Source: Deltaproteobacteria bacterium (lineage in GTDB: Bacteria; Desulfobacterota; Deferrimicrobia; Deferrimicrobiales; Deferrimicrobiaceae). From it: a stretch of DNA of 59,324 nt. The notes beneath the pieces were generated by a model that did not search any database, had not been told where the DNA came from, and was given only the letters and a program-made list of their open reading frames with translations. The stretch is taken from positions 1 to 59,324 of the forward strand of contig JACRNP010000029.1 of NCBI GenBank assembly GCA_016234845.1, read 5' to 3'. This document shows positions 38,087 to 47,432 of the stretch, in pieces (position 1 is the first letter of the stretch; the number at the start of each line of letters is the position of its first letter). Both the position numbers and the translations under genes were made by a program.

Positions 38087-40249
38087 GTGGGATACCAGTC
38101 GGGACGATTCGTCGGGACGGGGGGTTCGCCGGGGGTGGAGAGGATCCGTTCGCAGGACCGATCGGGGGATTTCTTCCTTGTGGCGGTCCTGGTCGCCAAT
38201 TTCACGTGCGGGATCCTCCTTCTGCTCTGGTTGCGCGCGGATCTGACCCGCGACCTGATCGACGACGAGAGGACGCTCGTCTCCTCCAGGGTCAACTCGT
38301 ACCTGTGGGGAAAGATCGTCCTGTTTGCGTCGTCCGTGGGCGCCGACGGGCGTTTGATGCCGGTGGGCCGCGGGTTCCCCTCGGAGGTGGGTCCCGTGAC
38401 ATTCGTTCGGGAACTGCCGCCGGACGAAAGCTTCGAACGGGTCCGCTCCGGAACCGGCGGTCTGCTTCCCTTGTTCCTTGGAAGGCCTCGGGAGGAAGCC
38501 GGGAGAGGATCCGTGCTCCCGCTGGCGGCCCACGTCGCCGGATTGACCGGATCGGATCGGTACGTGCTCGGATCCGTATCCCTCGCGGACCTTTCCGGGT
38601 ATTTCACCGACCTCAAGGCACACGGAATCCTTTGCCGGCTGGTCGACTCGGGAGGAAATCACCTCTTCGGGGACAAGGAGGCCTTCGCCGCGCCGGGCGG
38701 ATCGTGGGTCCTCGGGACCGCGCCGATCCTTGCCGGCGGGATCGGCAACGGGTGGTCCGCGCAGGTTTTCATCATGTCCGCCGGTCCGCACCTTCCCATC
38801 CTGCCGCAGGCGATCCTTGCGCTGTTCTTCCTGTTCAACGCCGCGACGCTGGTTTTTCTCCGGAAAAGGTTCCTGCGGCCCCCCCTCGACGCGCTGGACA
38901 GGATCTCCGGGGCATTGTCGGAGCAGGGGGAGCTTCTTCCCCGACAAGCGCCTCCGCGCCAGATATCCGACGCGGTGACAAGCCGGTTCGTCCGCTTCCG
39001 GAAGGAGATCGAGGAGGAGCGGATCGCCCTCGAGGAGAAGTTCGCGAGGCAGGTCAACGACCTTGGGCAGGCGCACAAGGACCTGGTCGCCCACCACAAG
39101 GTGACGAAGAAGATGCTCCAGTCCCGCCGGATCGACGAGGTGTTCGACACCCTCCTGGACGGCATCGCCGAGGGGTACGGATTCCGGGGGGCGCTCCTGG
39201 GGAAAGTTTCCAGGGACGGTTTCGTCGTTTTCGCCGGGGAGCCGGATCCGCTGTCCGGCGTTCCGACGCGGATCCCGTTGTGGAATCCGAACTCTCTCCT
39301 TGCGAGGACATTCTGGAGCGGGACAAGCGCCTTCCTGCCGACTCCGCTCGAAACGCCCCACCTCCCGGAAGAGGAGGCGATCCTGGGGGAGCGTGGCGGG
39401 GCTTCGTACGTCGTGCCGGTCACGAGGAACCTCAAGTCGCGGTGCGCCGACATCAGGAATTGCGGCGATCGGAGCTGCATCAATTTCTTTTCCGAGAACC
39501 TGAAGTGCTGGCTTCGTCGGATCCCCCCCGGATCGTTCATTCCCGACGCCGACCCGGAGCAGTTCCGGGTGCCGCTCGAGGGGTGCCTTCAGTGCGAGGT
39601 CTTCCCGTCGGCGGCGCTTCTTGTGCTCCGCACCGTCCCGAACGGGAAGGGGATCACTCGGGAAACCGTCGTCCCGGTCTCCACCCTTGCGTCCGAGGCG
39701 ACGCTTGCCCTTGAGGTCGTATCCCTCTACGACAACATGAAGTTAATGGCTATAACCGATGGTTTAACAGGGCTTTTCAATCACAGAGAGTTCTACAATG
39801 CGCTCCGCCGGGAACTGGAACGGGCTCGTCGGTACAAGCACAACATGTCCCTTCTCATGATCGATGTGGACGACTTCAAGCAGTTCAACGATCGATTCGG
39901 CCACCCCGCAGGGGACATCGCGCTGAGGAAAATCGCCGACCTGATACGCGGATGCGCCCGCACCACGGACATCATCGCGAGATACGGAGGGGAGGAGTTC
40001 GCCCTCATCCTGCCGGAATCCCAGCCGGTCGGCGCCTTGATGGTAGCGGAGAGGATCAAGACGGAGATCTCATATCACAACTTCATCCCGAACGCGAGCA
40101 AACCGGTACATCTAACCGTAAGCGTTGGTGTATTTTCATCGGAAGACGGCGGGGTCTCGGAAGACCAGATGGTTTCCCTTGCGGACGAGGCGGCATACAC
40201 CGCAAAGCAGCAGGGGAAGAACCGGGTCGTGGTGAAGGCGGCCACATAA
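38087..40249 (+). CDS. Membrane-anchored diguanylate cyclase (GAF-like domain with Cys-rich insert + GGEEF)
   Basis: Two TM segments, DGLTGLFNHR, IDVDDFKQFNDRFGHPAGD, RTTD I-site, RYGGEEF. Confidence 0.9.
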   Translation: MGYQSGRFVGTGGSPGVERIRSQDRSGDFFLVAVLVANFTCGILLLLWLRADLTRDLIDDERTLVSSRVNSYLWGKIVLFASSVGADGRLMPVGRGFPSEVGPVTFVRELPPDESFERVRSGTGGLLPLFLGRPREEAGRGSVLPLAAHVAGLTGSDRYVLGSVSLADLSGYFTDLKAHGILCRLVDSGGNHLFGDKEAFAAPGGSWVLGTAPILAGGIGNGWSAQVFIMSAGPHLPILPQAILALFFLFNAATLVFLRKRFLRPPLDALDRISGALSEQGELLPRQAPPRQISDAVTSRFVRFRKEIEEERIALEEKFARQVNDLGQAHKDLVAHHKVTKKMLQSRRIDEVFDTLLDGIAEGYGFRGALLGKVSRDGFVVFAGEPDPLSGVPTRIPLWNPNSLLARTFWSGTSAFLPTPLETPHLPEEEAILGERGGASYVVPVTRNLKSRCADIRNCGDRSCINFFSENLKCWLRRIPPGSFIPDADPEQFRVPLEGCLQCEVFPSAALLVLRTVPNGKGITRETVVPVSTLASEATLALEVVSLYDNMKLMAITDGLTGLFNHREFYNALRRELERARRYKHNMSLLMIDVDDFKQFNDRFGHPAGDIALRKIADLIRGCARTTDIIARYGGEEFALILPESQPVGALMVAERIKTEISYHNFIPNASKPVHLTVSVGVFSSEDGGVSEDQMVSLADEAAYTAKQQGKNRVVVKAAT

Positions 40250-40250
40250 G

Positions 40251-41057
40251 ATGGATCCGAATGGACGCGAGCCTTTCGACAGCCGGTTCAAGGCCGCCGT
40301 CGAAAGGAACTTCGACCAGAGCGCGCAGGCGTACGACCTGTTCGAAGGGAAACACCATCTCTTCGAGACGCTTACGCAAAAGCAGCTGGAACTGATCGAG
40401 CCGTCGCGCCCGGAACGGATCCTGGACGTGGGATGCGGGACCGGGATATCGACCCTTGCGCTCCACAAGTCGCTCGCGGGCCGATCTCCCCACATTTACG
40501 CGATCGACATCAGCGAGGCGATGCTCCACCAGGCGAAGGAGCGATGCCGCAAGGCGAGGGGGGTGTATTTCGTACGCGGGGACGCGGAAAATCTGGAGGC
40601 GTATTTCCACGAGGCGTTCGACGCGATCTTCTACACCGCCTCCGTTTTCCTTCTCCCGAGATTCGCCGATTCGATCCGACAGGCGAGCCGGCTGCTTCTT
40701 CCGGGAGGGGTTCTTTCCATCAGCTACTATTCCGGATTATTCACGTCGGAAGGGGAGGATGCCATCCGGAAGACATTCCCGGAGTTGAGGTACCAGTACG
40801 GGGCATTTCCCATCCACGAACTCCTGGCGTGCCTCGAATCGCTACACGAATACCGGACGACGAAGGTCGACCTGCGTTTCGAGGCGACAAGGGAGTTCCT
40901 GTTCGATTTCCTGTCCATTCCGGCGCAGTCGGCGGGACTGTTTCCAAAGGTTCCGTACCTGGAACGCATTCCGATGGTCCGGGATCTGTGCGCGGTGCTG
41001 GAAGCGAAGGCCGGGCCGATCTACATGGGGTGGAAGGTGCTGATCGCCCGGAAGTGA
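40251..41057 (+). CDS. Class I SAM-dependent methyltransferase
   Basis: RILDVGCGTG motif I, AIDISEAML, VRGDAENL. Confidence 0.85.
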   Translation: MDPNGREPFDSRFKAAVERNFDQSAQAYDLFEGKHHLFETLTQKQLELIEPSRPERILDVGCGTGISTLALHKSLAGRSPHIYAIDISEAMLHQAKERCRKARGVYFVRGDAENLEAYFHEAFDAIFYTASVFLLPRFADSIRQASRLLLPGGVLSISYYSGLFTSEGEDAIRKTFPELRYQYGAFPIHELLACLESLHEYRTTKVDLRFEATREFLFDFLSIPAQSAGLFPKVPYLERIPMVRDLCAVLEAKAGPIYMGWKVLIARK

Positions 41058-41078
41058 GCGTTGCCGCCATTCGACGTT

Positions 41079-41106
41079 ATTTGACATAATATACATTACC
41101 AGACGT
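41079..41106 (-). other. dif: Chromosomal dif site (XerC arm - spacer - XerD arm)
   Basis: Minus strand ACGTCTGGTAA TGTATA TTATGTCAAAT vs E. coli GGTGCGCATAA TGTATA TTATGTTAAAT; intergenic; gene orientation converges here. Confidence 0.88.
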
Positions 41107-41468
41107 AACCGCCCCATGGATCGCATTTTGATCCTTCTCTGAATTGGTGTCAAGACCAATTTTTCCCCTTCATAATCGGTCCTCCGCTTCGCGTCGCTCA
41201 CCTGGTCCTTTATCGTTTGCCTGTTGGGTAAAACATCAGACAATAATCTTGCGGGTGCGACGCGCTCCACGGGAGCTACGCTTTTTCGTACCAGGACGCC
41301 TGTTGCTGCGCCCCGCCAATGCGACAAAGTACCTCGCGGGGCGCATTCGTCTATAAGTGGTTGGTTTGCTTTGCGGGTAATAGTTACACACGCGCTGCGC
41401 TTTGTGGCGACATACGGGCTGAGTCCGGACTGTATTTGGAACGAATCAACATCTATCTTTGAAAATTG

Positions 41469-41870
41469 TTATTTCAATTTTTTATCAAGTATTGAACTTA
41501 TAATATTAATTTCTTCTGTTATTTTATGTGCTTTTAAATATGCATTTATCCATAATTCTCTAAATACAGTGTAAACGTGTTCATATTTCTCCCCAAGTAA
41601 TCTCTGAAAATCAATACCCTCAAAGTCTTTTCGGTTAAGAATAAATATGATTTGCCTCCCTTTAGATAATGATAGCGCATGATCGGGAGGTGCGTCTCTT
41701 TCATCCAAATCAGGTATCTCTTTTAATGATAGCCCATATTCTCCTTCTAATGGAGCAACAAGCATGCTTGTGTCAGCGGTTTTTTCCCATTGAATTACAC
41801 CTTTTAAGGTACCTTTAAATATCTTTGTGAATAAAGCTATAACTTCTGCATTTATTGGAAAGTCGGCCAT
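41469..41870 (-). CDS. Hypothetical soluble protein, 133 aa (IMEX cargo)
   Basis: Very AT-rich intact ORF, SD-like GAGGGG, 12 nt downstream of partner gene. Confidence 0.75.
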   Translation of the reverse strand: MADFPINAEVIALFTKIFKGTLKGVIQWEKTADTSMLVAPLEGEYGLSLKEIPDLDERDAPPDHALSLSKGRQIIFILNRKDFEGIDFQRLLGEKYEHVYTVFRELWINAYLKAHKITEEINIISSILDKKLK

Positions 41871-41882
41871 ATGATCCCCTCT

Positions 41883-42371
41883 CTACTTTTTGTTGATTGT
41901 TGATTCGTACTTTCCATATTCTGCTGCCAGAATAGTACTTAGCCTAACAGCTACAGAGAGTATTCCTGACATTTCTGATTGATTAGGGGTTCTAATTATA
42001 AATTTCCTGAATTGTGAATTCAATGTATCTAATTGAGTTATTGTCAAACTAAGATTTGATTTCGTATCATCACAAAAATGATCAGACCATCTGTTTATTA
42101 TAAACGTTAGCCTAAGAATTAGCCTATTACAAATAAATGATGCAACTGGCCAAATACTATTTTCAGAGTTAATTTTAATTAAATTAATATCATCTCCGCA
42201 TTCCCTTAACTCTTGAGCGACAGATTTTCTCTCTATAAGATTTCTTGCCTCAACTGCGGCTTCCTCTGCCCGCTTAGACACTTTCAAAACATAAAGAGTA
42301 AAAATAAGACCAAATAAGCTCGCTATGTTCCCCCAATTTATCAATAACCAATCAGCAATATTGTTAATCAT
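41883..42371 (-). CDS. Hypothetical protein with one N-terminal TM helix, 162 aa (IMEX cargo)
   Basis: WGNIASLFGLIFTLYVL hydrophobic helix followed by a helical region; AT-rich intact ORF. Confidence 0.75.
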   Translation of the reverse strand: MINNIADWLLINWGNIASLFGLIFTLYVLKVSKRAEEAAVEARNLIERKSVAQELRECGDDINLIKINSENSIWPVASFICNRLILRLTFIINRWSDHFCDDTKSNLSLTITQLDTLNSQFRKFIIRTPNQSEMSGILSVAVRLSTILAAEYGKYESTINKK

Positions 42372-42612
42372 TATGGTTTATAAAACCTCGAATTTCAAAA
42401 ATGCCACCTATCCACCCTTCTGTTTCGATAACACACGGTTGCATAACTGTGTTTCTATGTCAAGAAGGAGCGAAAAGTTGAAGAAAGAATTAATCTTTTT
42501 TGAAGATGATTGTTCGGAATGCACCATCAAGTGAATCGAAATATCAGGGTGCTGTTAGTTCTAACGGACTTCCGGTTCCGCCTAGAAAATCCAACCCGCG
42601 GTGGCCATGAAG

Positions 42613-42648
42613 AAGGACGGCCAAGCCCTCCGGGCTTTGCCCGTCCTT
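42613..42648. repeat. GC-rich hairpin in the non-coding part of the island
   Basis: AAGGACGG-CC-AAGCCC-TCC-GGGCTT-TGC-CCGTCCTT, 8+6 bp stems. Confidence 0.6.
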
Positions 42649-43077
42649 GTATCCAATCGTAAAAGTGATTCTTGGATTTGGTTATGATGATCCCATCAAG
42701 CACCGGGGATCTTCCAAAAATTCCCCGTGCTTCCTCGATACGTATCAAGTCCGGGTGTGCCTGCGACGCTGTGACTCGCTCTCGACCGAGAAGCCGTACG
42801 ATCTACACCTTAGAGCGTCACCGAGTCCAGCAGGACAGCAGCTCCGCCAAAGTGTCCCGCCTGTCCAAAACGGCACACCCGTTATCCTTGGCGCGAGCCC
42901 AGAGCATTCTGGCATCATCCACATGCCCCCTTGACCGGCTTCTCGGCGACGTACGCTATATTTCCTTGCGGACGTCAGATGTACCCTATCTCCCGGTTGG
43001 TGAGCGTCGGCCTCGATTCTCGGAATTCAATTTAACGTTATTCCCGAAGCCCCAGGATATAAGCCAGCAGCCCCCTT

Positions 43078-43533
43078 TCACTTATTTATGAAGCATCCCC
43101 GCCAGCAACATCGCTCACGTTCGAACTTCCGAGCAGAAGAAATCAGGGCTTCGACCTCCTGCCGCAAGTAGCCCTTTTCCCGTGGCCCCAAATGCTCTGC
43201 CGCTTCCTTTCGATTGTTCAACCACTCCCTCATTTTCCGGAATCTTTCCGTGTCCGTTCCTTCCAGCAAGCGGAACACAGGAAGAACCGTTTTGACGCAC
43301 CATTCCTTGTACAGGACAAGAGATTCAAGGCGCGCCTGTTCCTTTTCGTCGGAAACAGCGTTCGCCCTGACCTTATAGAAAAACGGTTGTGTGAATTGAT
43401 GAACGAGAGAGAGAAAACGGAGAATTTCTTTTACCGCAACCTGATCGGTTTCCATGACGATCCGGTAGCGGTCGCCATGCTGCCGAACTTCGATGAGTTT
43501 GAAATCAGAATTGACTTGAGAGTTGCTAAGCAT
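43078..43533 (-). CDS. Hypothetical protein of about 151 aa (IMEX backbone); the reading frame extends to 43689
   Basis: Longest ORF of the island, next to the degenerate dif copy; start uncertain; no recognisable family. Confidence 0.55.
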   Translation of the reverse strand: MLSNSQVNSDFKLIEVRQHGDRYRIVMETDQVAVKEILRFLSLVHQFTQPFFYKVRANAVSDEKEQARLESLVLYKEWCVKTVLPVFRLLEGTDTERFRKMREWLNNRKEAAEHLGPREKGYLRQEVEALISSARKFERERCCWRGCFINK

Positions 43534-43711
43534 ATCCGACCGGCCCCCATCATCCAACAAGGGATTTTCCGGCGGATACGCATGTTTCTTACAACCACGA
43601 AGTTCAGTTCGACTGTGTCCGTGCCCGGTAGCATCAACACAGCCCTGTGGTTCTTGGGGGTATTCTATCGAATTCCGCCGCCCCGTCAAGGAGTATTTTC
43701 TCCTTTAAGGA

Positions 43712-43739
43712 CGGAAGGTTAATATACATTACCAGACGC
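43712..43739 (-). repeat. Second dif-like site with degenerate XerD arm
   Basis: Minus strand GCGTCTGGTAA TGTATA TTAACCTTCCG. Confidence 0.82.
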
Positions 43740-43765
43740 AGCAGGAATCGATAATCCCCGGGGAT

Positions 43766-46033
43766 TCAAGCCCCCCACATCCGCTCCGAGAAGTCCGATC
43801 CCGGCAGTTCAGCGGAAAACGTCCCGTACATGGGCCACCGCTCCCCAAGCGTCCCCTTCGGCTGGATCGTGATGAAGAACTCCAGCCGTTCGTCCTTCAC
43901 GCAGTCGATCAGCTCGAACGGAAACCCGATCTCCACGACTTTCGAATACGCCATCCGCACACCGAATTCGTGTTCGGCCTCCAGGACGGATGGACCCGGG
44001 TCCGCGTGGTGGGATCCGCCGAAACCGGAAAACGTGCACGAAGATGTTCCCTCCGGAAGATTCAGGTCGATTCGCATCTTCCGGTTCTTTTCGGGGAAAA
44101 GAAGCTCCAGGGTGACCTCGGTCGTGTTCTCCGTCGCCACCGGGTCGATGTCGAACCGAAAGAACAGTTCGGTCTTGCTGAAGCCGTAGAAGAACGAGGA
44201 AAGGATAAGGCGAGCGGCCCGGTGCATCGTGCCGAATTCGGGGTTCGGGATGTAATGGAAGGCAGAACTCCATTCGAAATAGGAAGTTACGATCCCGTCG
44301 ATGTTCGGATGGATGTAGGACATTGGCGCCGGTATGGCGTTTTTCCTGGACGGAATCCTTTCGGCTTTGATGATCGGAACATCCAGCATATCCGGTGGAT
44401 TAATGCCCATCGAATTATATGCGGCTTTAATGTTGTGGCGAAACAGGCGGTCGAATTCGGGACCGTGCGGAGTGAAATGGTCGTCCCCGTACCACCAGCA
44501 CCAGTCGGACCCTTCCGCCGCGAATATGTACTCCTCGGCCTCCTTCAGTTTTTCCGGCACCGCCTCTCCCGATTTTTCGAAGTTCCCCGCCTTCGATTCC
44601 CAGAGGGATCGAACCCGCGACAACATGTCCCAGGCGGCGTGGTCCTCGGGGTGCCCGATCCATATATGGAATGTCCCGTCGATCCAGGAGCCGGTAGGAA
44701 CCGACGGCAGCTCCTCGAACGTCCGGGTCTGTTCAAGCGCCTCGGAAACGGGCACGCATTCGACCACGGGACGGAGCTGCTCGAGTTTCGACATGAGCGT
44801 CCTCAGGAAGTAGACTCCGGAATCCGGAAAATATTCCCAGGCGTTTTCGCCGTCCAGGATCACGGGGACGATCGGATCGTCTCCGTAATATGTTGAATTG
44901 TTACTTGATAATGAATCGTATATGCACTTGATATTATGTACAAAATTATTTGCGGCATCGTCCGCGTTCCACCGGGAATACTCGAAGCCGATGAGGTCCG
45001 AAAGACGATGGTCGCGGAAGAGGATCCGGATATCGCCCGAAGGGGTTTTCACGGAGTACGGCCGGTACAGCCATCGGGGCTCCATGGGAATACCGTCGGA
45101 ATTCCGATGGATCGGTTTGCCGAGCGCCTTGGAAAGGAGCGCCTCGTCCGTTGCGATCCAGCGAAAACCCGCCTCGGAGGCGAGATCGAGGGTCGCGGGG
45201 CTGATGGACCCTTCCGACGGCCATAAACCTTTCGGATTCGCCCCGAACAGGTCGCGGAAGACGTCCCTCCCCCGCTCCAGCTGCCTTCGGGCGTCTCGCG
45301 GGAAGGAGAACGGCATCGAGGGGAGCGACGCGCCCGGCCACGCGTCCTGCGCGGACCGGTTGTCGATCAGCAGGGGGAGGATGGGATGGTACATCGGGGA
45401 CGACGAAAGCTCCCCGCCGTCCTCCTTCTCGAGTTTCCGGTACTCGTCGAACATGGCGCCCATCACGTCGATCTGGCGGTCGAGGACGTACTGCTTCTCT
45501 CTCTCCGTGTACCGACCGCCCTTTCGCCAGAGCCGGGATAGCTCTGGGTCCTCCTCGAGATGGAGCGGGTGGTACCAGGCCAGGTTGAACAGGGTGACGA
45601 GGTCGGTGTACTCCGAAGCGCCGAAGGTCCCCGAGCGGCCGTTTCCCCGGAGGGAGCGGATCGCGTTTTCATGTCCACGGAACAGCTCCGCGTACCGGGG
45701 CTGGGGGAGGATCATCGTCGGCGCGAACGCGGAAAAGAAGTTCCGGAGGATGAATTCCTCCTCGTCCCTCGAAAGGTCCAGGGCGTTTTTCCGGGAAACG
45801 GCGAGGAAGATGTCTTCCGCTCCGTTTTCGACGTAGTCCCGGACCTGGATCAGCAGGGAGGGGACCAGGTTGAACGTGTGCCGCACGCCCCGGAACTCGC
45901 GGAAGATCCGCGGGAGGGAGACGTAATCCTTGACCGCGTGGAGGCGCACCCATGGGAGGGTGTAGGTCCCGGTTTCCGGGTCCTTGTAGTACGGCTGGTG
46001 CATGTGCCAGAGAAAACAGAGTCTGAGCTTCAT
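43766..46033 (-). CDS. Glycoside hydrolase family 57 (amylopullulanase-like)
   Basis: WHMHQPYY, YHPILPLL, GLWPSEGS (nucleophile Glu), ILDGENAWE (acid/base Asp), AEGSDWCWW. Confidence 0.92.
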   Translation of the reverse strand: MKLRLCFLWHMHQPYYKDPETGTYTLPWVRLHAVKDYVSLPRIFREFRGVRHTFNLVPSLLIQVRDYVENGAEDIFLAVSRKNALDLSRDEEEFILRNFFSAFAPTMILPQPRYAELFRGHENAIRSLRGNGRSGTFGASEYTDLVTLFNLAWYHPLHLEEDPELSRLWRKGGRYTEREKQYVLDRQIDVMGAMFDEYRKLEKEDGGELSSSPMYHPILPLLIDNRSAQDAWPGASLPSMPFSFPRDARRQLERGRDVFRDLFGANPKGLWPSEGSISPATLDLASEAGFRWIATDEALLSKALGKPIHRNSDGIPMEPRWLYRPYSVKTPSGDIRILFRDHRLSDLIGFEYSRWNADDAANNFVHNIKCIYDSLSSNNSTYYGDDPIVPVILDGENAWEYFPDSGVYFLRTLMSKLEQLRPVVECVPVSEALEQTRTFEELPSVPTGSWIDGTFHIWIGHPEDHAAWDMLSRVRSLWESKAGNFEKSGEAVPEKLKEAEEYIFAAEGSDWCWWYGDDHFTPHGPEFDRLFRHNIKAAYNSMGINPPDMLDVPIIKAERIPSRKNAIPAPMSYIHPNIDGIVTSYFEWSSAFHYIPNPEFGTMHRAARLILSSFFYGFSKTELFFRFDIDPVATENTTEVTLELLFPEKNRKMRIDLNLPEGTSSCTFSGFGGSHHADPGPSVLEAEHEFGVRMAYSKVVEIGFPFELIDCVKDERLEFFITIQPKGTLGERWPMYGTFSAELPGSDFSERMWGA

Positions 46034-46066
46034 CTCGCCCCCCACCCTCCCCGATCGGGCGGCAGG

Positions 46067-46790: not shown

Positions 46791-47432
46791 CTACCGGGCG
46801 AGGATTTCTCGTGCGTTATCCTGCATCCGGAGAGCTTCCGGCTCGGGAAGCCCCGCCCCCCGGATGATCCGAAGCGCCGCATCCCAACGGGTGAAATCGC
46901 CGGGAGCGTGCGCGTCGGTATTGTATACCATCCGGGCCCCCGTTTTCACCGCGATCCTTGCGACGTGGCCGTTGGTCAGACAGTGGCCCCGGCGGGCGGT
47001 GATCTCGAGGCACACGCCGTTCTTCCGGGCGAGCCGGGCCTCCTCTTCCGTCAGCAGGCCGGGATGCGCGAGGATATCCGCTTTCGCCTCGATGGCGGCG
47101 AGGTTGGTCCCCTTCGGCACCGGCTCGACGATCGTCTCTCCATGAACGATCACCACCTTCGCGCCCAGCTTCCGCGCGCGGGCCACCATGGACGCCACGA
47201 GTCGGGGGGGTACGTGCGTGATCTCGACGCCCGGGTACGCCGCGGCGCGCGTCGCGCCGCGGAGCTCACGACACACGCGGACCATGTTTTCGAGGATGAG
47301 CTCGAGGTTGGACGGGTCGGCGTGGTCCGTGATCGCGAGCGACCGGTATCCGGCGGCCACCGCGCGGGAAACGACCTCGGCGGGGATCAGCTCCCCGTCG
47401 CTGAACGTGGAGTGCATGTGCAGGTCGATCAA
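46791..47432 (-). CDS. PHP-domain phosphoesterase (histidinol-phosphate phosphatase-like)
   Basis: DLHMHSTFSDG, AITDHAD, GVEITH, HGET, LAHPG, NTDAH. Confidence 0.85.
   Translation of the reverse strand: MIDLHMHSTFSDGELIPAEVVSRAVAAGYRSLAITDHADPSNLELILENMVRVCRELRGATRAAAYPGVEITHVPPRLVASMVARARKLGAKVVIVHGETIVEPVPKGTNLAAIEAKADILAHPGLLTEEEARLARKNGVCLEITARRGHCLTNGHVARIAVKTGARMVYNTDAHAPGDFTRWDAALRIIRGAGLPEPEALRMQDNAREILAR

Follow-up and report, generated by a model that had tools for sequence, protein, structure and literature searches.

A 2,633-bp AT-rich insert between a methyltransferase gene and a GH57 glycoside hydrolase gene of the window (the whole stretch of 59,324 nucleotides that was analysed) is very probably an integrative mobile element exploiting host Xer (IMEX), inserted at the chromosomal dif. 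On sequence comparison, it is a member of an undescribed family of such elements, found only at the GH57–dif–methyltransferase locus in related uncultured lineages.

The insert is bracketed by an exact 19-nt direct repeat, TAATATACATTACCAGACG, at positions 41087–41105 and 43720–43738; no third copy was found in the window at up to three mismatches, and none is expected from shuffled sequences. The left site, next to the methyltransferase gene, is a full dif, ACGTCTGGTAA-TGTATA-TTATGTCAAAT, and its XerD arm and spacer are identical to those of the dif of three relatives (L004, L005, and L006). The right site, next to GH57, reads GCGTCTGGTAA-TGTATA-TTAACCTTCCG; it has the same spacer, an XerC arm that differs only at the outermost base, and a non-canonical arm on the XerD side in which the dif XerD arm is retained only at the three innermost bases. 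Ten related elements carry the same class of non-canonical arm. At the outermost position of the XerC arm, the host-flank side and the empty allele have G, and the element side and all family members have A. These two sites, the only dif-like sites of the insert, are located on the same strand and are co-oriented, with the degenerate arm and the left XerC arm facing the insert. The left dif coincides with the peak of the cumulative GC skew at about 41 kb, and the insert has a GC content of 42–44% versus 65–70% in its surroundings. The repeat corresponds exactly to the XerC arm plus the spacer, with the arms exchanged, as Xer chemistry predicts. A preliminary description of this DNA had reported the 19-bp repeat with one complete dif and one dif with a degenerate XerD arm, the orientation of the degenerate arm and the left XerC arm into the island, an interior far more AT-rich than the host, and a geometry of the TLC/GGI type; the coordinates, the arms, and the base composition are all borne out by our analysis, and the canonical XerC arm, the identical spacer, and the non-canonical XerD arm agree with the proposed geometry.

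Empty sites were found both in relatives and in the source population. In L004, L005, and L010, dif is located 26–33 nt past GH57 and is followed by the methyltransferase gene after a further ~22 nt. The source data are groundwater metagenome runs (SRR12113393, SRR12113396, and siblings), and the contigs of one of them (run X1) include a 41-nt unitig of the empty site (GTTATTTGACA, the repeat, and CAGCAGGAATC) at a depth of 13.3, along with an occupied-junction unitig (43607–43749) at a depth of 24.8 and the right flank at 46.1, so that the empty-site junction accounts for about 29% of the depth of the locus. In addition, 51 nt at 41294–41344 are common to another contig in runs X2 and X3. At least three alleles, namely the empty site, the window element, and a variant with other cargo, occur together in one population. 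Among runs X1–X4 the empty allele was assembled in X1 only, and run X5 yielded diverged flanks only. The X1 empty allele could stem from a co-occurring sister strain rather than from excision, a second strain being seen in the contigs. Since the site is empty in relatives and in part of the same natural population, the insert is a real mobile element. The preliminary description had held that a vertically inherited segment with no empty-site allele would count against its reading, and the empty sites listed above show the opposite. Of the two junctions reconstructed there, the empty site has turned out to be a real sequence in X1, while the attP junction of the circle was found in no contig of runs X1–X4, a weak negative because contigs drop rare forms.

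Table 1. Features of the element and its host flanks (window positions)
Feature	Position	Strand	Remarks
SAM-dependent methyltransferase, host flank	40251..41057	+	conserved dif neighbour, XerD side
dif, methyltransferase-side end	41079..41106	-	XerD arm 41079-41089 (host), spacer 41090-41095, XerC arm 41096-41106 (from element; outermost base A)
Conserved element end	41107..41369	-	75-84% identity across elements
Cargo ORF, 133 aa, orphan	41469..41870	-	no family match; one homolog in 5.8 billion proteins
Cargo ORF, 162 aa, orphan	41883..42371	-	hydrophobic N-terminus; seven homologs, all unnamed
GC-rich hairpin then UUCUUC, terminator-like	42590..42660	-	common to short-form element L098; shuffle z-score only -1.55
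Conserved non-coding block, ~395 nt; candidate structured RNA or single-stranded DNA element	42693..43089	-	directly after o203
o203 core gene	43078..43533	-	151 aa here, 167 aa in most relatives; proposed Xer accessory/activation factor (inferred)
o203 leader and promoter	43534..43711	-	TTGACG-16-TAGAAT at 43689-43662; conserved TAAAGGAGAAAATACTCC before promoter, adjoining non-canonical arm
Hybrid site, GH57 side	43712..43739	-	arm 43712-43722 (element, TTAACCTTCCG), spacer 43723-43728, XerC arm 43729-43739 (host; outermost base G)
GH57 glycoside hydrolase, host flank	43766..46045	-	conserved dif neighbour, XerC side

A search for relatives of the backbone protein o203 revealed 19 homologs, and every fetched locus lies between GH57 and the methyltransferase gene and is bounded by an XerC arm, TGTATA, and a related non-canonical arm. 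Each element combines exchangeable cargo with a backbone of ~1.3 kb, arranged in the order att site, promoter and o203, ~395-nt block, variable cargo slot, and ~265-nt end. At related loci, arrays of modules of 266–3,643 bp were observed, including a shorter dif-bounded class (class B), and some of these modules are visibly decaying. In the six arrays that also contain other modules, the o203-type element adjoins the true dif, as would be anticipated for the latest arrival by Xer integration. Between the window and the L084 clade, synonymous divergence amounts to 0.62–0.75 for the element gene and 1.6–2.0 for the host methyltransferase gene; the lower divergence of the element relative to its host flanks points to horizontal transfer. 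In close hosts, element and flank divergence are similar, and much of the spread there could therefore be vertical. As to the database check proposed in the preliminary description, a search for the ORFs next to other dif sites, every fetched o203 locus sits at dif; the description's reading of the insert as a very small IMEX, satellite or remnant, agrees with the empty sites as far as the IMEX is concerned, and the idea of an isolated remnant does not hold for what is one of a family of dif-locus elements with a conserved backbone.

The cargo differs between family members, and in the window element it consists of two orphan genes. The AF2 model of the 133-aa product is unusable (pLDDT 50), and the 162-aa ORF is preceded by a promoter-like site at 42398–42370. 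The window element is devoid of the 74-aa (weak HTH) and 111-aa ORFs present in long-form relatives; a private deletion of these ORFs was ruled out, since L098 has the same short form. None of the plausible element ORFs had a match in Pfam, PHROG, PADLOC, or NCBIfam, no recombinase, Rep, or virion domain was detected in any ORF tested, no Zot or pI genes were found among the element ORFs (Pfam, PHROG), and the window contains no tyrosine-recombinase motif, as had been noted for recombinase, Rep, and pI/Zot before. Since replication and virion genes are absent, the element may be a satellite or depend on transformation.

Two non-coding regions of the backbone are conserved. The ~395-nt block aligns in at least eight elements, and RNAalifold predicts 89 pairs in it, of which 12 changed on both sides, compared to 4.9 ± 1.5 in shuffles (none of 500 reached 12) and 1–6 in slid controls. 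A search against Rfam (E ≤ 1, positions 39000–46000) gave no match. The element end contains an invariant hairpin at 41308–41344 (9-bp GC stem, 19-nt loop), a sigma-70-like promoter pointing outward (TTGACA-17-CAAAAT, 41153–41125), and the motif GGGGCGGTTA abutting the XerC arm; it was not called an RNA because covariation support is absent (term +1.56). Both this outward promoter and the o203 promoter are conserved across elements.

The only protein-coding gene common to all members is o203. A 203-aa ORF was rejected as the gene, since the alignment shows that its first 52 codons correspond to the promoter and leader rather than to protein. The dN/dS ratio is 0.05–0.19 among relatives and 0.33–0.43 for the window copy, and by this measure o203 is under purifying selection; the window copy is the most diverged one, with a truncated C-terminus and relaxed dN/dS, and the short-form element L098 keeps a well-conserved, strongly constrained gene. 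No match to o203 was found in Pfam, NCBIfam, PDB, or BFVD (including a sequence-profile search of PDB and a Foldseek search of the o203 model against PDB and BFVD, E ≤ 0.001), and IMG/VR, INPHARED phages, and PLSDB plasmids contain no member of the family. Likewise, hmmscan against Pfam-A did not detect DUF3653, the domain of the TLC-phi factor XafT, in window o203 (E ≤ 0.1) or in protein P0007 and the remote homologs (E ≤ 1). Two of these remote homologs, P0023 (locus L101) and P0025 (L102), are encoded within ~60–180 nt of a dif-like or dif site, and three (P0022, P0024, and P0025) are fused to HTH domains, recalling the HTH plus DUF3653 layout of XafT (PMC6744903).

It is possible, although somewhat short of probable, that o203 serves the element encoding it as an Xer accessory or activation factor that works at the non-canonical arm, an analogue rather than a homologue of XafT. 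Since o203 has no similarity to DUF3653 or to a known fold, this role is deduced from position and conservation: o203 and its remote homologs always lie beside an att site, in three different element types. A serious alternative, with a substantial chance of being correct, is that o203 has a regulatory, maintenance, or replication function or binds the RNA of the adjacent structured block, integration being performed by XerCD alone, through basal XerC activity, or with a factor supplied in trans. The conserved structured block immediately downstream of o203 would suit such a function, the protein resembles no recombination directionality factor either, and the short class B modules found in these arrays follow the same site design and yet have no o203-type gene; on the other hand, the constant adjacency to att sites and the presence of o203 as the sole protein-coding gene in every member argue for the recombination role.

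For the mechanism, we infer that the element depends on Xer, that it forms a circle, and that o203 takes part as outlined above. The 2,633-bp circle would carry the attP ACGTCTGGTAA-TGTATA-TTAACCTTCCG, with a good XerC arm, a spacer identical to that of dif, and a non-canonical arm replacing the XerD arm, and its junction is predicted to read ...CGGAAGGT-TAATATACATTACCAGACG-TAACCGCCCC.... Host XerC and XerD presumably recombined this attP with the dif GCGTCTGGTAA-TGTATA-TTATGTCAAAT. The expected products are seen in the window, a perfect dif beside the methyltransferase gene and a hybrid site beside GH57; with a perfect dif regenerated, chromosome-dimer resolution would be kept. Following an argument made for TLC-phi and the gonococcal island, the poor XerD arm of the hybrid site should shield the insert against excision driven by FtsK. 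In the circular form, transcription from the outward promoter would cross attP and enter o203, and one could speculate that this leads to circle-specific expression. A broader hypothesis, which we consider doubtful, is that the family represents an integrase-free gene-capture system operating on host Xer, in which a non-DUF3653 protein, possibly together with the ~395-nt RNA or DNA, activates or directs XerCD at the non-canonical arm, promoters crossing attP make expression dependent on the circle, and the elements build, together with class B modules and by successive integrations, arrays of dif cassettes in an uncultured Deferrimicrobiota-like lineage.

The insert could also be an immobile relic, which entered at dif through Xer in the past and is now unable to move, the polymorphism being due to ancient lineage sorting or to loss in one direction only, through FtsK-XerCD or repeat-mediated deletion. 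The state of the window o203, the lack of two backbone ORFs of long-form relatives, the missing circle junction in the X1–X4 contigs, and the decaying modules in related arrays are all in line with this scenario. However, conservation extends to the att site, the two promoters, the structured block, and the element end, all of them intact, o203 is strongly constrained in the second short form, and one population holds at least three alleles, making a relic unlikely and a mobile Xer-exploiting element the preferred interpretation.

Much less likely is the involvement of a recombinase other than XerCD, for example, the integrase of a helper element targeting a dif-like sequence, in which case the resemblance to dif would reflect target choice only. 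A pair of HTH_17 and tyrosine-integrase genes is indeed present a few kb from the locus in L084 and L085, but it is located beyond the host methyltransferase and GGDEF genes, outside the arrays, and both the missing integrase motif in the window and the match of repeat and exchanged arms to Xer chemistry speak against it. Finally, vertical inheritance of the segment, with a dif-like repeat that arose by chance or by duplication, is a reading for which the small size of the element might be cited, but it is scarcely conceivable given the empty sites in three relatives and the same population, the low GC content of the insert, the zero expected chance matches of the repeat, and the different cargo in homologous elements.

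The best-known IMEXs are those of gamma- and beta-proteobacterial pathogens, in which they move toxin and resistance genes. The DUF3653 domain, the only known Xer activation factor domain, has been reported only in gamma- and beta-proteobacteria (PMC6744903). A site design like that of TLC and GGI is now seen in a distant uncultured groundwater lineage, beside a different conserved protein. If o203 does activate or direct XerCD, it would represent a second, independent solution to FtsK-independent Xer activation and a second superfamily of Xer activation factors, as anticipated by Midonet et al., who suggested that the gonococcal island might have a factor belonging to another superfamily (PMC6744903); attP and one gene would then make a compact, testable model. 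In addition, the dif arrays suggest that the terminus can act as a site of cassette accretion without a dedicated integrase.

Among known systems, TLC-phi of Vibrio cholerae, an XerD-first satellite phage with XafT, is similar in that its attP combines a canonical XerC arm, a centre identical to dif, and a non-canonical XerD arm, in that integration regenerates a functional dif without a recombinase of its own, and in that a small element-encoded gene is located near the XerD side of attP (PMC6744903; PMC9226527). XafT is detectable only from non-integrated TLC-phi (PMC9226527). Unlike TLC-phi, the window element has no DUF3653/XafT homolog, no Cri-type Rep or other replication gene, possesses the ~395-nt structured block and a variable cargo slot, and resides in an uncultured non-proteobacterial host. 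The GGI of Neisseria is likewise bordered by dif and by a dif-like site, the degenerate XerD arm of which is believed to block FtsK-dependent excision, and it has no XafT-like protein (PMC6744903); however, it is a large island with a type IV secretion system, whereas the window element measures 2.6 kb and carries two orphan cargo genes along with a conserved candidate factor gene.

CTX-phi and VGJ-phi, which integrate by an XerC-first route with the Holliday junction resolved by replication, are also integrase-free, inserted at dif, and found in tandem dif arrays (PMC9226527; PMC4246890), but they are filamentous phages that carry Rep and virion genes. In CTX-phi, two inverted sites fold into a single-stranded attP, in contrast to the single site of the window element, while VGJ-type sites keep the XerD arm and have limited spacer homology; in the window element the spacer is fully identical to that of dif and the XerD arm is degenerate. 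Acinetobacter pdif modules and integron cassettes share with this family the organisation into short site-bounded gene modules with variable cargo that are stacked in arrays. Integron cassettes depend on IntI and attC, and the window element has no integrase; the pdif modules reside on plasmids between inverted XerC/D-D/C sites, unlike the direct repeats at the chromosome terminus described here.

The element is bounded by a 19-nt exact direct repeat, TAATATACATTACCAGACG, located at positions 41087-41105 and 43720-43738, and no third copy with up to three mismatches was found in the window, where none would be expected by chance (expectation 0). The spacer of the right site is identical to that of the left site, as is the XerC arm except for its outermost base, while only the three innermost bases of the XerD-side arm are retained. 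The GC content of the 2.6 kb between the sites is 42-44%, versus 65-70% in the surroundings. The exact repeat, the pairing of a complete dif with a dif carrying a degenerate XerD arm, and the AT-rich interior, all reported in the preliminary description, were thus recovered. The cumulative GC skew reaches a maximum at ~41 kb of the window, as expected of a terminus. A further match to the XerC-arm/spacer core, with one mismatch (CGTCGGTAT-TGTATA-CCATCCGGGCC, 46910-46940, plus strand), lies in inverted orientation inside a coding sequence 3.2 kb to the right of the island; it is probably due to chance, although only 0.03 such matches were expected.

Features of the element and its flanks, and unitigs of metagenome run X1
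Feature	Position	Strand	Details
SAM-dependent methyltransferase, flank	40251-41057	+	
Left site	41079-41106	-	ACGTCTGGTAA-TGTATA-TTATGTCAAAT; complete dif (XerC arm, spacer, XerD arm)
Conserved outward sigma-70-like promoter	41153-41125		TTGACA-17-CAAAAT; within conserved end
Conserved end, ~265 nt	41369-41107		
Invariant hairpin	41308-41344		Within conserved end
Conserved non-coding block, ~395 nt	43089-42693	-	Follows backbone gene
o203 promoter	43689-43662	-	TTGACG-16-TAGAAT
Right site	43712-43739	-	GCGTCTGGTAA-TGTATA-TTAACCTTCCG
GH57 glycoside hydrolase, flank	43766-46045	-	
X1 unitig, left flank, shared	41019-41105		k-mer depth 50.3
X1 unitig, right flank, shared			k-mer depth 46.1
X1 unitig, left junction, occupied-specific			k-mer depth 31.4
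X1 unitig, occupied right junction	43607-43749		k-mer depth 24.8
X1 unitigs, window element's own end and cargo			k-mer depth 21.1-21.3
X1 unitig, empty-site junction (41 nt)			k-mer depth 13.3

Relatives were retrieved via the GH57 protein; the closest MAGs, labelled delta-proteobacterium or Candidatus Deferrimicrobiaceae, showed 59-69% identity. In three loci (L004, L005 and L010), GH57 is followed after 26-33 nt by a perfect dif and, ~22 nt further, by the methyltransferase, an arrangement that represents an empty site; in L006, ~6.9 kb separates GH57 from dif. The window sequence is present in four metagenome runs from groundwater, all belonging to the same study, which are probably its source, so that the occupied state in these runs is not independent evidence. 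In run X1, a 41-nt unitig consisting of GTTATTTGACA, the 19-nt repeat and CAGCAGGAATC joins the left and right flanks via one site only and exactly matches prediction. The empty site reconstructed in the preliminary description therefore exists in X1, and the site is also empty in the three relatives. The outermost XerC-arm base is G on the host-flank side of the window and in the empty allele, and A at the element's end in the window and in all family members, a pattern predicted by exchange within or adjoining the spacer.

The unitigs of X1 and their depths reveal at least three co-existing alleles: empty, the window element, and a related element that has the same ends, a backbone ~9% divergent and other cargo. 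A second backbone allele occurs in all four runs, X1-X4, at a third to half of the depth (43020-43636). Its ~9% divergence is patchy, with identity over 42689-43020 and 43607-43720, and it departs from the window to the left of 42689 and to the right of 41114, which indicates other cargo; the pattern resembles that of a mosaic or recombining population. No contig with the circle junction was found among the assembled contigs of these runs. The runs also contain another strain, slightly diverged, so the empty allele may belong to this sister strain instead of arising via excision.

The largest ORF of the element (43078-43689, minus strand; 203 aa) has 19 homologs among 5.8 billion proteins, none of which is named or has a Pfam domain. 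The 203-aa length was rejected as the true gene product, since the alignment puts the start at ATG 43533 and the upstream "codons" constitute a conserved promoter and leader; the protein, o203, comprises 151 aa in the window and 167 aa in most relatives. The promoter is preceded by TAAAGGAGAAAATACTCC, directly after the non-canonical arm. All loci retrieved via o203 homologs (L006, L084-L100) sit between GH57 and the methyltransferase, and all of them have, ahead of the gene, XerC arm-TGTATA-non-canonical arm, the latter being GTATCCGACGA, TTAACCGACGA or TTAAACGGCGG, and TTAACCTTCCG in the window. Wherever the contig extends far enough, the elements terminate in ...GGGGCGGTTA and a perfect dif. 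The element, read in the preliminary description as a very small IMEX (satellite or remnant), is thus a member of a family and not a one-off. Values of dN/dS of 0.05-0.19 among relatives indicate purifying selection; the window copy has diverged furthest (0.33-0.43) and has a shorter C-terminus.

No match to o203 was found in Pfam or NCBIfam, DUF3653 included, or among PDB sequences, and its AF2 model (pLDDT 69.7), a beta-hairpin and four helices, matched no fold in PDB or BFVD. When 1.84 billion representatives were searched exhaustively with an HMM, the yield was limited to two close clusters and seven remote matches, and three of the remote matches carry a C-terminal HTH. Two remote homologs were placed in genomic context. 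Upstream of P0023 are ACGTCTGATAA-TAGATA-GTTTCATAGGT and a TTGACA promoter, and L101:780-1632 suggests adaptation of the o203 family to hosts whose dif differs. P0025 is separated by 177 nt from a true dif with exactly the window's sequence, on the XerC side, beside the same methyltransferase; its locus, L102:2147-2891 (JGI Ga0214473_10114771), represents a third type of element at a dif of this sequence. There the protein is a C-terminal HTH fusion reading into the element, and the contig stops after 3.1 kb. In these contexts, three types of element link the o203 domain with att sites of the dif type.

The family layout comprises an att site, promoter and leader, backbone gene (o203), ~395-nt block, cargo slot and ~265-nt end. 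Only long forms carry additional ORFs of 74 aa (weak HTH_23 match) and 111 aa; the window element and L098 are short forms lacking both and have in common a terminator-like hairpin after the block. With homologues in L006, L084, L085, L087, L092, L095 and L098, the block gave a consensus structure of 89 pairs, 12 of which showed both-sided changes, versus 4.9 +/- 1.5 in shuffles (0/500) and 1-6 in slid controls. It contains long-range complementary segments and many G-C/G-U alternations, on the sense strand of the backbone gene. With eight sequences, from which the structure itself was derived, these data are suggestive of a structured block. It has no Rfam match; a new structured RNA is one possibility, and a single-strand DNA element, e.g., an origin or packaging signal, is another. 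No covariation was found in the conserved end. Cargo slots are AT-rich throughout, and no two of the elements compared carry the same cargo. The window cargo consists of two orphan ORFs, of 162 aa (hydrophobic N-terminus; seven homologs) and 133 aa (one homolog), without a family match or usable model. Related elements carry, among other cargo, a DUF6864 and a DUF1232 protein (L087:5922-6419, L098:2169-2510).

When the window is compared with the L084 clade, the methyltransferase shows a synonymous divergence of 1.6-2.0 and the backbone gene one of 0.62-0.75, and the non-coding backbone is alignable at 71-84% identity; the lower divergence of the element shows that it postdates the host split. 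Among members of the L084/L085/L098 clade, element and host have diverged to a similar extent, so the element may have been inherited vertically there. Genes for HTH_17 (excisionase-like) and a tyrosine integrase were observed at L084:14764-16504 and L085:8849-9046, ~3.5 kb past the methyltransferase-GGDEF flank; this pair probably represents another integrative element, distinct from the island, close to the terminus.

Six related loci have several co-oriented modules in the dif region (class B arrays at L087:181-3120, L084:5128-7786, L006:14721-16391, L096:2776-3523, L097:1654-3724 and L098:655-971). Class B modules (266-2,193 bp) open with XerC arm-TGTATA-TTCTCCGGGCATTCGCATGG. Their cargo consists of single genes of various kinds, among them genes for outer-membrane beta-barrel, prepilin-like, PNPOx-like and DUF3617 proteins. 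The reverse strand of a conserved ~60-nt leader after the att start reads TTGACAGA-17-TATCAT. This promoter points back over the att site, and the cargo ORFs begin at the far end on the same strand, so that on a circle it would transcribe the cargo in the manner of an integron cassette. Decay is greatest in the sites nearest GH57, and the o203-type element is always the module adjoining the true dif, the position of the latest integrant in the Xer model.

XafT, TLC-phi's Xer activation factor, combines an HTH with DUF3653, is encoded next to the degenerate XerD arm of TLC-phi, activates XerD and aids synapsis of imperfect sites (PMC6744903, PMC9226527). By analogy, o203 is tentatively proposed as the element's Xer accessory factor, a role we consider possible rather than probable. 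On a circle, the outward promoter at the opposite end would read over attP into the o203 gene. XafT is detectable only from non-integrated TLC-phi (PMC9226527), and one could speculate that circle-dependent reading of o203 parallels this restriction.

No description of an IMEX in this host lineage was found in the literature. The empty sites in relatives and X1 and the TLC/GGI-type geometry support the IMEX interpretation, and the element is most likely a genuine IMEX with clear boundaries, belonging to a new family. Unlike CTX, it lacks both a pair of inverted sites and phage genes; unlike VGJ, its spacer is fully identical and its XerD arm degenerate; and, unlike in pdif modules, its sites are direct repeats in the chromosome. 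TLC and GGI have the same site design, with a canonical XerC arm, identical spacer and non-canonical XerD arm, but two defining features of TLC, DUF3653 and Rep, are missing. By this comparison, the element would function like a TLC-type IMEX, yet outside the TLC family.
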